The notes under the pieces were generated by a model that was not told the DNA's origin, ran no database searches, and saw only the letters and a list, made by a program, of their open reading frames with translations. From assembly GCA_016278615.1 (NCBI GenBank), contig JADQBM010000067.1, positions 7,143 through 71,142 of the forward strand: a stretch of DNA of 64,000 bases. The letters are read 5' to 3'. The DNA is from Clostridia bacterium. Lineage in GTDB: Bacteria > Bacillota > Clostridia > Peptostreptococcales > JAAYPU01. Each line of letters opens with the position of its first letter. Positions within the stretch are counted from its first letter, which is position 1. Positions 7,520 to 9,731 of the stretch are shown here, piece by piece. Position numbers and translations under genes: made by a program.

Positions 7520-8239
7520 TTATTGATTACTTTCCTTGCTTTTAATAACCAATCGCAACTTATTGTTTGTATCACAAGTAACCAACGTCAGTGTACGGAC
7601 CTCATTTGTCGTTAATTTCTCTACTTCATCAGGCATTATAGTTAATATTTCATAGACTTCGTAGGTTATTTTTCTGCCAGTCAGATCAGTAAGGTCTATC
7701 AAATCTCCAATTCCAAGCAAATGTAAGCTTCCGAAATGTGCTCCATTTAAATAATTATGTCCAATAACAATTAAGTTTCCTGGTTCATTTGGTTCTGGTC
7801 CACTAAACTTGTTAACTGAAATGTCTAGAAGCTCATAACTCCATTCTGATAACACGGATAAGTTTAAGCCTGTTTTTTCAATTTGTAATTTTGCTATAGG
7901 TGTATACTCAACTTTGGTTTTCTCTATTGGCTTGGAAGGAAGTTGCTGAACCTCAGCAGAATTTATTTCTTCATCATTAGTGTTCTGGGACTCAGATATT
8001 GCCGCAGTATTCTGGGGCTTAGACGTTTCCGTTTTTAGTGCTACCTTTTCAAACTTCTCAAGCAGCAGCTGAGCATTTTTTTGTGCCATTTTACCTTCCA
8101 TATATACTGGATATGCACTACTTATCGCAAGAATTAGTAATATACCACTAATAATGAAAGCCCACGTCTGAAATGTAAAAAAGGCAAGAATATTCTTGCC
8201 CTTTCTATTATTACTATTTTTTTTAGATAAGTTATTCAT
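7520..8239 (-). CDS. Sortase (cysteine transpeptidase)
   Basis: 239-aa ORF with an N-terminal TM anchor. Catalytic His in LIVIGHN, a TLVTCD (TLxTC) active-site motif, and a downstream Arg (KLRLVIKS). The start overlaps the upstream surface-protein gene by 8 nt. Confidence 0.85.
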   Translation of the reverse strand: MNNLSKKNSNNRKGKNILAFFTFQTWAFIISGILLILAISSAYPVYMEGKMAQKNAQLLLEKFEKVALKTETSKPQNTAAISESQNTNDEEINSAEVQQLPSKPIEKTKVEYTPIAKLQIEKTGLNLSVLSEWSYELLDISVNKFSGPEPNEPGNLIVIGHNYLNGAHFGSLHLLGIGDLIDLTDLTGRKITYEVYEILTIMPDEVEKLTTNEVRTLTLVTCDTNNKLRLVIKSKESNQ

Positions 8240-9731
8240 TTAATTTCTTTCTTTTATGTCCAAGTAACATGCCTACACCAGCAAGTATTGCTGCGATACT
8301 TCCAAAAAACATTGCCATGCTATAATCTGTTTTCTGACCTGTTTGTGGTATTACTTCGACTTCTTCATAATTATTAGTAATAGTTGCCATTTCTATCTGA
8401 TCTGCTGCTACCTGTACTGTTCCTTCACCACTAACCGTCCATTCACTACTCAGACCAGTACGATTTTCTGTTACGTTATATTCCCCAGGCACTAGATCTT
8501 CCCATGTATAAGATTCGTCATGAGCAAAGGTTCTGGTTGCTGAGAAATCCTCTGGTCCGGTTACCGTGATCTCAAATGTCGGTAACGTCATATCACCAAT
8601 GTCGCCAGATACAATTTTTTCAACAGTTAATGAACCAACTGGAGTACTGTCAACTGGGGTACTGTCAACTGGAGTACTGTCATCTGAATCACTGTCATCT
8701 GAATCACTGTCATCTGAATCACTGTCATTTGAACCACTGTTATCTGAATCACTGTCATCTGAAGGACTGTATAAATTAGTGATGGTAGTTAAGTGTAGTT
8801 CATTTGCTACCACCTGTACGGCGCCTTCACCACTAACCGTCCATTCACTACTCAGACCTGTCCGATTTTCTGTTACGTTATATTCCCCAGGCACTAGATC
8901 TTCCCATGTATAATATTCGTTATGAGCAAAGGTTCTGGTTGCTGAGAAATCCTCTGGTCCGGTTACCGTAATCTCAAATGTCGGCAACGTCATATCGCCA
9001 ATGTCGCCAGTTACAATTTTTCTAACGGTTAATGAGCTGGATGTCCCTGTAGTTATAGTATTGTTGTCTAATGTAACTGCACCAACCATTGCTAACAACT
9101 GTCCTTTTATTTTCGCACCGGTAGTCGCTGTAATTGATTCCGATGAAAGGATATTCCCTACGAATTCAGAATTTGTCCCTAATGTAGCGGAGCTTCCAAC
9201 GGCCCAGAATATGTTGTTGTAATTAGCACCATTAATGAGCTCAACCTTACTACCTGACATAGTAGTCAGAGTAGACCCAGCTTGCAATATAAAGACAGCA
9301 TTGTTGTTGTTTTGACCATCAAGCGTAAGAGTGCCTGTGATTTGTAACTCCGTAGCTGAACTGTAAACACCAGGTGTTAAGGTTGTTCCACCAAGCTCAG
9401 CGCTGATGGCATTGCTCGTTCTAACAGTAGCATCGTTATATGCGGCTAACAGGTCATTCTTGGCCTGTAGTGCTACAGCATCAGCAATATGTACTTCCCC
9501 ACTCACGATCGCTGGTCCCTGCCCACTGAACACAGTCCCTGGGTGCAAGCCAACATCTCCGTCGATTATTGTGTTTCCCGTATTCGTAATTGTCGAACCT
9601 GCTAACACAGCAAAGCTATCCGCTGTTCCAAGATTCACAGTTGTTTCAATTGCCATACTCACAGGCGTAATCATCATAATTACCAGTAATATTAATAGTG
9701 TTAATGATATCGTTTTATTGAAATTCCTCAT
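8232..9731 (-). CDS. Sortase-anchored surface protein with an N-terminal ice-binding-like (DUF3494) beta-helix, two duplicated Ig-like domains and an SD-rich linker
   Basis: 499-aa ORF with a signal peptide. [33 protein letters not shown] is typical of DUF3494/ice-binding-like proteins. Two roughly 90-aa near-identical repeats are present. The linker is [42 protein letters not shown]. The C-terminal sorting signal is IPQTG (8337-8351), then a hydrophobic helix, then HKRKK. Confidence 0.85.
   Translation of the reverse strand: [499 protein letters not shown]

Follow-up and report, generated by a model that had tools for sequence, protein, structure and literature searches.

The analyzed stretch of DNA (the window, 64 kb in length) contains a two-gene cassette on the reverse strand, in which the gene for a surface protein is followed and overlapped by a sortase gene (Table 1); the host is an uncultured anaerobic bacterium of Clostridia type. 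The features named in the original prediction, among them the length of the surface protein and the 8-nt extent of the overlap, were found where it had placed them, apart from one minor correction of a G+C value, and are not chance patterns.

Table 1. Features of the adhesin-sortase cassette and its flanks
Feature	Coordinates	Strand	Description	Basis or remark
Adhesin gene	8232..9731	-	499 aa; signal peptide, DUF3494 solenoid, stalk, linker, stalk, sorting signal	ORF; Pfam and NCBIfam
Sortase gene	7520..8239	-	239 aa	ORF; PF04203, E 5.9e-20
Gene overlap	8232..8239	-	8 nt, ATGAATAA	sortase start codon falls within the 3'-terminal codons and stop codon of the adhesin gene
Shine-Dalgarno-like site	9739..9748	-	GAGGAGAGGG, 7 nt ahead of the adhesin start codon	sequence reading; putative function
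Signal peptide	9651..9731	-	aa 1-27, Sec-type, ends ...PVSMA	sequence reading; putative cleavage site
DUF3494/Ice_binding domain	9036..9650	-	aa 28-232, beta-solenoid and bracing alpha-helix	presumed binding tip
Stalk domain 1	8757..9035	-	aa 233-325, DUF5979-type beta-sandwich	conserved Lys238/Glu288/Asn319 triad
Linker	8640..8756	-	aa 326-364, Ser/Asp-rich and TPVDS	about 9 copies of a 15-nt tandem repeat
Stalk domain 2	8361..8639	-	aa 365-457, duplicate of stalk 1	triad Lys372/Glu422/Asn453
Cell-wall sorting signal	8235..8360	-	aa 458-499; IPQTG, QKTDY, TM helix, HKRKKLNE	
GC-rich hairpin	7454..7485	-	about 35 nt past the sortase stop codon	RNA fold; candidate operon terminator

The sequence 5' of the sortase start codon is purine-rich and has no clear GGAGG, which fits translational coupling to the adhesin gene as a possibility rather than as a proof. 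At the other end of the cassette, the RNA fold of 7420-7525 on the reverse strand has an energy of -22 kcal/mol (z -2.5); since the hairpin has no adjacent T-run and was missed by the terminator scan, its role as a terminator is tentative. The counts from promoter and terminator scans were not above those in shuffled controls, and Rfam gave no matches at gathering scores across the 64-kb window. Riboswitches sensing c-di-GMP lie upstream of some clostridial adhesins. A riboswitch or other known RNA of this kind was considered for the 1-kb ORF-poor leader and rejected, as positions 7300-10900 gave only chance-level Rfam matches at E<=1.

The adhesin starts with a predicted signal peptide that has a basic N-terminus and a hydrophobic helix (residues 2-21 in the AlphaFold model of the 499-aa protein, mean pLDDT 83.8). 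Ala27 is kept in at least 90% of homologs in an alignment of about 30 full-length proteins. The following domain matches the Ice_binding profile PF11999 over the full length of the model (residues 42-227, model positions 1-208 of 208, score 202.7 bits, cutoff 28.7, E 7e-60). The 33 residues that had been read as the signature start of a DUF3494 domain (residues 34-66) lie at the start of this match. In the AlphaFold model, the domain is a discontinuous beta-solenoid braced by one long helix (residues 85-102), mostly with pLDDT above 90. The domain matches the solved structure of the ice-binding protein EfcIBP (PDB 6EIO), both by phmmer (2e-50) and by Foldseek (48% identity, rmsd 1.3 A, TM 0.87). 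The DUF3494 assignment, made at first from the letters alone, is thus confirmed by profile and by fold. The NCBIfam equivalog model IBP_CFB scores below its cutoff (101.6 versus 400).

The module is not the unexpected one for which it had been taken. Sorting signals are present in 85 of the 120 best homologs, and most of the named homologs belong to Bacillota or Clostridia metagenome-assembled genomes (MAGs). Ice_binding (PF11999) is also listed among the adhesive domains of fibrillar adhesins, which Monzon et al. describe as proteins composed of an adhesive domain, stalk domains and an anchor (PMC8286594). DUF3494 is therefore common in Clostridia MAGs and already recorded as an adhesive module of this protein type. 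A further protein, P0002, is identical to the adhesin of the window, and look-ups by exact sequence gave no record for either.

The two stalk domains are encoded by a direct repeat (8373-8633 versus 8775-9035, 261 nt, 89% identity). Stalk 2 matches DUF5979 (PF19407) along the whole model (score 29.4 bits, cutoff 25, positions 1-104 of 104); stalk 1 has DUF5979 and DUF7601 matches under their cutoffs, is all-beta in the AlphaFold model and is matched by Foldseek to pilins, TIE and SdrD. A sequence search of PDB with the stalk domain found no relative. PF19407 falls within the PF19403-PF19408 range of families built in the study of Monzon et al. (PMC8286594). Both Lys/Glu/Asn triads are conserved in the alignment and placed in the expected CnaB-type strands, and the stalks are probably stabilized by Lys-Asn isopeptide bonds. 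The linker between them has pLDDT below 50 and is encoded by a tandem repeat detected by TRF at 8636-8770 (period 15, 9 copies, 88% matches).

The C-terminus completes the layout of an LPXTG-type surface protein, that is, a signal peptide, a C-terminal pentapeptide (IPQTG, residues 461-465, nt 8337-8351), a hydrophobic segment (21 residues) and a basic tail. The TIGR01167 LPXTG_anchor model is reached barely (16.8 versus a cutoff of 15.9), and Pfam Gram_pos_anchor fails (13.2 versus 20); the sorting signal together with the TIGR01167 match upholds the prediction of a sortase-anchored surface protein. With a PF11999 tip, a PF19407 stalk domain and a sorting signal, the protein has all the parts of a fibrillar adhesin.

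The signal had been called non-canonical, which does not hold for the pentapeptide: RrgB, a backbone pilin of pneumococcus, is known to have IPQTG as its signal, and the nearest characterized sortase prefers LPQTGS (PMC4498605). An extended signal, [IL]PQT[GS]Q-x-[ST]-[DN]-Y, is present in 33 of the 85 signal-bearing homologs, and its Gln6 and Tyr10 are invariant in all 33 sequences. This conserved extension, and not the pentapeptide, is the distinctive part of the signal. When the 44-residue signal by itself was searched against 1.84 billion representatives, the matches were DUF3494 adhesins only, apart from one that was spurious. Over all six frames together, the window has a single sortase, a single sorting signal and a single PQTG.

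The sortase matches PF04203 with 71.7 bits (cutoff 26.6). Its predicted model consists of (i) an N-terminal transmembrane anchor (residues 25-43), (ii) a disordered linker (71-108), and (iii) a catalytic beta-barrel (110-239) with the triad His161, Cys222 (in TLVTC) and Arg229; the His, Cys and Arg residues are kept in 28 homologs. The closest solved structure is Clostridium perfringens SrtD (CpSrtD, 4D70), as judged by profile (3.3e-19) and by fold (5e-10, 31% identity, rmsd 2.4 A). Class-specific models, suggested at the outset as a means of classification, do not place the enzyme. None of the NCBIfam sortase class models scores above its cutoff, including the top-scoring class C model NF033745 (51.5 versus 160) and the class D models NF033746 (19.7 versus 165) and NF058671 of the Bacillus type (25.8 versus 140), and the class assignment is therefore loose. 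A new class D subclass, 'sortase D5', has been suggested for the clostridial CpSrtD-like sortases, and the window enzyme shares with them 4D70 as the nearest structure, an xPQTG signal and an adjacent substrate; membership in this group follows best-hit logic at 31% identity, because it has no curated model. We propose that the enzyme is a single-pass membrane sortase of the C. perfringens SrtD-like lineage.

The pentapeptide shared with RrgB, the class C model as the top NCBIfam score, though far under its cutoff, and the pilin-like fold of the stalk domains would also suit a minimal sortase-assembled pilus, in which a class C polymerase links adhesin subunits head to tail by joining the Thr of IPQTG to a pilin Lys. 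Such an enzyme is expected to look different from the one observed, which has neither a DP[FWY] lid motif nor a C-terminal transmembrane helix, contains a single transmembrane segment, scores at less than a third of the class C cutoff and has the non-pilin CpSrtD as its closest solved relative. The adhesin likewise lacks an E-box and a pilin motif of the YPK or PK[NDE] kind, and the sortase is accompanied by a single substrate gene, without basal or tip pilin genes. In view of the motifs and class scores, pilus assembly was rejected, and we regard it as extremely improbable.

The argument for a dedicated adhesin-sortase pair comes from comparison of loci. The adhesin gene is directly upstream of the sortase gene in L001-L006, L086 and L087/88, and the flanking genes differ between these loci. 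The 8-nt overlap is kept in all eight loci with both genes, as ATGNNTAA or, in L005, as GTGNNTAA. The two proteins co-diverge (Mantel r 0.97, p about 0.001), a correlation driven mainly by the four close genomes L001, L002, L003 and L006. Eleven sortase homologs were found on contigs equal in size to those with xPQTGQ-type adhesin homologs. The type of signal covaries with the sortase: the enzyme is found only beside DUF3494 adhesins with the extended signal, and not beside those with an ordinary LPxTG. For three DUF3494 adhesins whose signal is LPxTGG, the surrounding 6 kb contain no sortase. The cognate pair proposed in the original prediction is thus well supported by synteny, by the overlap, by co-divergence and by signal type. 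Cleavage of IPQTG by this particular sortase is suggested by the gene linkage and by analogy with CpSrtD.

The two genes might still be neighbors by chance, with a housekeeping sortase elsewhere in the genome anchoring the adhesin and the adjacent sortase serving other substrates. The window covers 64 kb of the genome, a housekeeping sortase or additional xPQTGQ substrates may be encoded outside it, and the housekeeping independence suggested at first is a conjecture. More distant members of the sortase lineage (a group with MNQILVTEKLY... N-termini) stand alone, with no adjacent substrate. Incidental adjacency does not, however, account for an overlap kept in every two-gene locus amid differing flanks, for the co-divergence, or for a sortase that accompanies xPQTGQ-type adhesins and is absent next to LPxTGG-type ones; moreover, the signal-only search gave no other passenger. 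We consider this explanation very unlikely. The two-gene operon is instead likely to encode a self-contained system, in which a private sortase serves a fibrillar adhesin that becomes covalently attached to the wall.

The high G+C content of the adhesin gene had been taken as a sign of horizontal origin. The G+C content is indeed raised at 9401-9500, at 0.48 and not the 0.50 originally counted, and across the gene as a whole (0.418, compared with 0.344 in the sortase gene and a window mean of 0.333). The excess is found in codon position 2 (GC2 z=3.4, GC3 z=1.1), and a G+C content of 0.406, close to the observed value for the gene, is predicted from the amino-acid composition and the host codon usage. 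The raised G+C is thus an amino-acid effect and provides no evidence of transfer, contrary to the initial claim. The cassette lies within a non-syntenic segment and is therefore accessory, a status on which G+C is silent. Around this variable segment (6.4-14.6 kb), the only hallmarks of mobile elements are short AT-rich repeats, and its flanking genes include no integrase or transposase. Enzymes of c-di-GMP metabolism were considered as universal neighbors of the cassette and rejected, since they are present in five loci and absent from the window and from L001-L006.

For the self-contained pair, we suggest the following sequence of events. The 499-aa precursor would be exported by the Sec pathway, and its C-terminal helix and basic tail would keep it in the membrane. 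Termination-reinitiation at the overlap may provide translation of the sortase, which would therefore be made alongside its substrate. The sortase would cut between Thr464 and Gly465 of IPQTG, probably also reading the conserved Gln466 and Tyr470 just past the cleavage site, and would pass the adhesin to a peptidoglycan precursor. The mature adhesin would then present the DUF3494 solenoid as a tip on two DUF5979 beta-sandwich stalks, each probably locked by its isopeptide bond, with the acidic Ser/Asp spacer in between. The solenoid would be the binding tip, and its ligand may be ice, as in EfcIBP, or some other ordered material, whether a surface or a polymer.

If the ligand is ice, the protein would be a Gram-positive ice adhesin for which the sortase pair is merely the anchoring device, and cells of seasonally frozen sediments would attach to ice, shape it, or inhibit recrystallization at their own surface. 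Besides its closeness to EfcIBP, the solenoid is 41-42% identical to AnpIBP, and both of these Antarctic proteins were deposited as ice-binding; Thr, Gly, Ala, Ser and Asn are abundant in the solenoid. MAG name prefixes used for Siberian soda-lake sediments (PMC6704655) occur at L004 (T1Sed10) and L005 (CSSed10), which are two of the six closest species-level loci. For a Shewanella frigidimarina protein combining DUF3494 with tandem beta-sandwiches, a role as an ice adhesin has been put forward, as cited in PMC11645318. On the other hand, homologs of the same architecture come from many Clostridia and Bacillota MAGs that show no obvious connection with ice, and the DUF3494 literature accepts substrate-binding members beyond icy habitats (PMC12337378). 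The collagen-binding LPXTG protein BA_0871 of Bacillus anthracis is noted to have an ice-binding-like fold (PMC9210967), and ice affinity is not predictable from sequence similarity. True ice binding by the wall-anchored tip is thus, in our estimate, unlikely.

A joint reading combines this ligand with a distinct sortase class whose recognition would reach about five residues beyond the point of cleavage (invariant Gln6 and Tyr10). In this reading, the clostridial sortase lineage, as found here in roughly 190 genomes, fits no curated class, and parts of it form single-substrate cassettes with [IL]PQTGQ-type signals and interchangeable cargo. The cargo is the DUF3494 solenoid in the present case and a Big/PKD-like protein in Christensenellaceae, while two further loci have a cohesin-domain protein with LPKTGN. 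The combination of a new class with a truly ice-binding cargo seems quite unlikely; if true, these proteins would be the first sortase-anchored ice adhesins, in anaerobes of seasonally frozen alkaline sediments.

Comparison of the private adhesin-sortase pair with known systems revealed several partial precedents. CpSrtD is encoded in an operon with a single wall-anchored protein, CPE_RS01465, which has an LPQTGS signal, and prefers this signal over LPNTGS, LPETG and LAETG (PMC4498605). The window enzyme resembles it in the compact lid-less barrel, the His/Cys/Arg triad, the Gln at signal position 3 and the operon with one substrate. It differs from CpSrtD in its long disordered linker and in its DUF3494 cargo, at 31% identity, and in a signal that starts with Ile and continues with the invariant Gln6 and Tyr10, whereas the CpSrtD partner has Ser after Gly. 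The surveys of fibrillar adhesins cover the domain architecture; neither a dedicated sortase nor an extended xPQTGQ signal is described there, and Ice_binding is taken to bind ice. The solenoid has the same fold as EfcIBP and AnpIBP (7BWX/7BWY), and SfIBP_1, for which a role in attaching cells to ice has been suggested (cited in PMC11645318), has a similar arrangement of solenoid and tandem beta-sandwiches. These proteins are secreted or associated with a Gram-negative envelope and come from polar organisms, whereas the window protein is predicted to be sortase-anchored and belongs to an anaerobic Clostridia-type lineage. The RrgB/SrtC system of Streptococcus pneumoniae (class C) shares the IPQTG and, probably, the CnaB-like stalks of isopeptide type (PMC5640630, PMC3132780); unlike it, the window system has no lid motif, second transmembrane helix, pilin motif or accessory pilins.

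The pairing is thus real and conserved, yet it is a further example of the known systems of dedicated sortases and fibrillar adhesins. An enzyme and a signal whose conservation extends past the pentapeptide could serve as an orthogonal sortase-tag system. Current understanding is changed neither by this use nor by the question of what DUF3494 does in organisms that never meet ice, unless assays bring a surprise. That question is a live one for the ice-binding-protein field, and the window presents a 48%-identical relative of a deposited ice-binding protein on a defined stalk and, by prediction, on a Gram-positive wall; with only two genes, the compact cassette lends itself to transfer into a tractable host for display, ice-binding and ligand assays.

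Both ORFs of the cassette were placed correctly by the original prediction: an adhesin gene is followed by a sortase gene that overlaps it by 8 nt (ATGAATAA). The adhesin gives a full-length match to the Pfam Ice_binding (DUF3494) family (aa 42-227, 202.7 bits, E 7e-60) and ends, as expected, with IPQTG, a 21-residue hydrophobic stretch and HKRKKLNE. Other Pfam matches are of DUF5979 type, in two stretches, and, weakly, to an LPXTG anchor; NCBIfam model TIGR01167 scored barely above its cutoff. The anatomy of the protein, taken from an AlphaFold model with a mean pLDDT of 83.8, is given in the table.

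Features of the adhesin-sortase cassette, its surroundings and related loci (L-handles, fetched relative loci)
Feature	Location	Strand	Remarks
Adhesin gene	8232..9731	-	499 aa
Signal-peptide helix	aa 1-27		AlphaFold model
Beta-solenoid and bracing helix	aa 28-232		pLDDT mostly >90
Stalk domain 1, all-beta	aa 233-325		AlphaFold model
Disordered linker, Ser/Asp-rich, with TPVDS	aa 326-364		coded by ~9 copies of a 15-nt repeat
Stalk domain 2	aa 365-457		261-nt duplicate of stalk 1, 89% nucleotide identity
Sorting signal	aa 458-499		adhesin C-terminus
Sortase gene	7520..8239	-	239 aa
Decayed TM1586-type nitroreductase gene	6885-7353	+	split by frameshifts into two or more pieces, covering model positions 1-59 and 63-112 of 215
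Cassette flanks			unrelated housekeeping/accessory genes: MutS-like, decayed TM1586-type nitroreductase, isochorismatase, TetR, alpha/beta hydrolase, MerR, SPOUT methyltransferase, HtrA-like protease
Christensenellaceae-type pairs	~8000 in each locus		L012, L017, L022, L024, L028, L030, L032-L034, L040, L041, L045, L047-L050, L054-L056, L061, L073
PAS/GAF neighbours	L081 7877-11176; L083/L084 8449-11244; L085 7908-10319; L086 7996-10995; L087 8990-12073		

By both sequence and fold, the solved structures nearest to the solenoid were deposited as those of ice-binding proteins. EfcIBP (6EIO; E 2e-50, 48% identity, rmsd 1.3 A) comes first, ahead of AnpIBP and of proteins of Cryosericum, Shewanella, Flavobacterium and Colwellia. 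For the stalk domains the match is to DUF5979, among the stalk families that a survey of fibrillar adhesins defined (PMC8286594), and their fold resembles pilin, TIE and SdrD domains, although no solved sequence relative was found in the PDB. Lys/Glu/Asn triads (K238/E288/N319 and K372/E422/N453), located on the first, middle and last strands and conserved in 30 homologs, follow the CnaB-type isopeptide-domain pattern, and the corresponding bonds are predicted. The number of stalks varies from one to several among homologous adhesins, e.g. P0001 (874 aa), P0003, P0005 and P0011. In the window, the two stalk copies (8373-9035), 89% identical in DNA, flank the 15-nt tandem repeat. The varying counts, the near-identical copies and the repeat suggest that stalk length changes via recombination.

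The assignment of the smaller ORF as a sortase was confirmed by a PF04203 match (5.9e-20) and by His161, Cys222 (in TLVTC) and Arg229; in its model, a disordered linker (aa 71-108) connects an N-terminal helix to a compact barrel (aa 110-239). None of the NCBIfam class models came near its cutoff for this protein (class C 51.5 vs 160, GN 44.6, E 35.6, D 19.7), and the same holds for its lineage-wide relatives. The best solved relative, by profile and by fold, is Clostridium perfringens SrtD (4D70), with a profile match of 3.3e-19 (the next, a class C enzyme, 1.2e-10) and a fold match at 31% identity and rmsd 2.4 A. SrtD, placed by its authors in a proposed new class D subclass, strongly prefers LPQTGS over LPNTGS, LPETG and LAETG, and its gene forms one operon with an LPQTGS wall-anchor protein (PMC4498605). 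Thus, a private sortase beside an xPQTG substrate has a characterised precedent. Given this preference, and since IPQTG is a known sorting signal of the pneumococcal pilin RrgB, the signal should not be called non-canonical. A role of the two proteins in pilus assembly is unlikely: the sortase has neither a lid motif nor a second TM helix, the adhesin has neither a pilin motif nor an E-box, and accessory pilin genes are absent.

The proposal that the sortase is dedicated to the adhesin is well supported by (i) synteny, (ii) a conserved junction, (iii) co-divergence, and (iv) covariation with the sorting signal. In species-representative genomes, all six loci with the closest sortases (L001-L006, 55-60% identity) encode a DUF3494 protein directly upstream; stalk domains are visible in five of them, the L004 adhesin ending at a contig edge. 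Apart from this pair, none of the window's genes is shared with these loci. The same pair occurs in two more metagenomic loci, L086 and L087/88. The junction reads ATGNNTAA, or GTGNNTAA in L005, in 8/8 loci having both genes. Solenoid and sortase catalytic domain diverge in parallel, their pairwise identities being strongly correlated (Mantel r 0.97, p ~0.001), a value dominated by four closely related genomes. Finally, the sortase, the sorting signal and PQTG each occur once in the six frames of the 64-kb window.

A sorting signal is present in 85 of the 120 best adhesin homologs. The extended form [IL]-P-Q-T-[GS]-Q-x-[ST]-[DN]-Y (xPQTGQ type), with invariant Gln6 and Tyr10, was found in 33 of these 85, and 27 of the 33 share a fixed 34-residue tail; the remaining 52 have an ordinary LPxTG, mostly followed by Gly. 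Eleven of 43 sortase homologs come from contigs equal in size to one with an adhesin homolog, and all of these adhesins are of the xPQTGQ type. No sortase was found within 6 kb of three ordinary-LPxTG adhesins on long contigs (P0024, P0010, P0047). A search with the 44-residue signal alone, whose shortness limits sensitivity, found three DUF3494 adhesins among 1.84 billion cluster representatives, plus one Bacteroidota repeat protein judged spurious. In the close homologs P0006 and P0009 the signal is IPQTSQNTDY, with Ser replacing the normally invariant fifth-position Gly.

Relatives of the sortase are encoded in 187 species-representative genomes, and all 80 fetched loci belong to Clostridia-type MAGs. 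Among these 80, Christensenellaceae-type loci have a longer sortase (300-340 aa), and its partner is a Big/PKD-like protein of ~450 aa with the C-terminus LPQTGQD[FM]TL (LPSTGQD in L049), the ORFs mostly overlapping; in L078 and L080 the partner of the sortase is a cohesin-domain protein ending in LPKTGNTQY; and in many gut-derived loci the sortase stands alone, with no substrate gene next to it. Since PQTGQ is common to the Christensenellaceae-type group and the clade of the window, we suggest that the lineage as a whole prefers Gln in third position and that its cargo has been exchanged.

Several relatives depart from the simple pair. The sortase homolog in L007 (2504-3130, P0162; 49% identical) has Ser where the catalytic Cys would be (TLTMVTS), lacks an upstream adhesin gene, and is possibly a decaying orphan. 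P0115 (381 aa, from a 1777-nt Logan contig) joins a signal peptide, DUF3494 and a canonical class D sortase domain (NF058671, 168.9 bits vs cutoff 140) in one ORF; whether a true fusion or an artefact of assembly or frameshift, it is a second, independent DUF3494-sortase link. At five independent loci, the gene that comes after the adhesin or the pair, in the same orientation, encodes a PAS/GAF protein of 800-1100 aa whose GGDEF, EAL or HD/HD_5 domains are of the cyclic-di-GMP-signalling type. Such a neighbour is absent after the cassette in the window and in L001-L006; a radical-SAM/SPASM gene is next in L002, L003 and L006.

The G+C argument for a horizontal origin was not upheld. The adhesin gene has a G+C of 0.418 (sortase gene 0.344, window 0.333), and the segment 9401-9500 has 0.48 rather than 0.50. 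The excess lies mainly in GC2 (GC1/GC2/GC3 0.478/0.454/0.322 vs window means 0.428/0.302/0.270; z 1.1/3.4/1.1). The G+C richness of the gene stems from the many Gly, Ala, Thr and Ser residues of its product: the amino acids under window codon usage predict 0.406, a gap of less than 1 SD of other genes.

Independently of G+C, gene order shows the cassette to be accessory. In L089/L090, the closest relative found (MutS-like protein 74% identical), only ~120 nt separate a homolog of the gene 14469..14948 from the MutS-like gene; the window has ~7.9 kb between the two, occupied by the cassette and other accessory genes. The segment 6535-14468, holding the nitroreductase pseudogene, cassette, isochorismatase, TetR, hydrolase, MerR and an unknown gene, is missing there from the interval separating the MutS-like gene from the homolog of the SPOUT methyltransferase, and homologs of MerR and the unknown gene sit elsewhere in L089. 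No repeats, integrase or transposase marking a mobile element were found around the cassette, which was likely gained, or lost in the other lineage, without sign of recency. A 26-nt AT-rich inverted repeat (6858-6883/10187-10212, 81% complementary) brackets the pseudogene, which directly adjoins the cassette 3' end, the cassette and ~450 nt upstream; given the base composition, it is probably due to chance. The ~1 kb upstream of the adhesin (9732-10783), with no ORF >62 aa and no Rfam match, is either a long leader/promoter region or what is left of a lost gene. The 64-kb window, which covers the gyrB region close to the presumed replication origin, has no match at gathering score to any Rfam family (tRNA, rRNA, riboswitch or leader). 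GyrB shares 76-78% identity with that of Sinanaerobacter, Crassaminicella, Marinisporobacter and Anaerovoracaceae, and closer relatives, up to 91%, include Peptostreptococcales/Clostridia MAG proteins; the host would be an uncultured anaerobic Clostridia-type lineage. Among species-representative genomes, a set outside which the window's own genome falls, the best sortase match is 60% identical.

The adhesin tip might bind ice, in view of its identity to EfcIBP and of two of the closest MAGs, whose prefixes are used for Siberian soda-lake sediments; the wide occurrence of the architecture in Clostridia MAGs argues against it. PF11999 already counts among the adhesive domains of fibrillar adhesins (PMC8286594), and an ice-binding-like fold was reported for the collagen-binding LPXTG protein BA_0871 (PMC9210967). 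The claim that DUF3494 is an unexpected module here was not upheld. No paper in the literature searched mentions it together with a sortase. The cassette is a sortase, probably dedicated, with a fibrillar adhesin, a kind already known; its extended invariant signal and ice-binding-like tip deserve modest follow-up.
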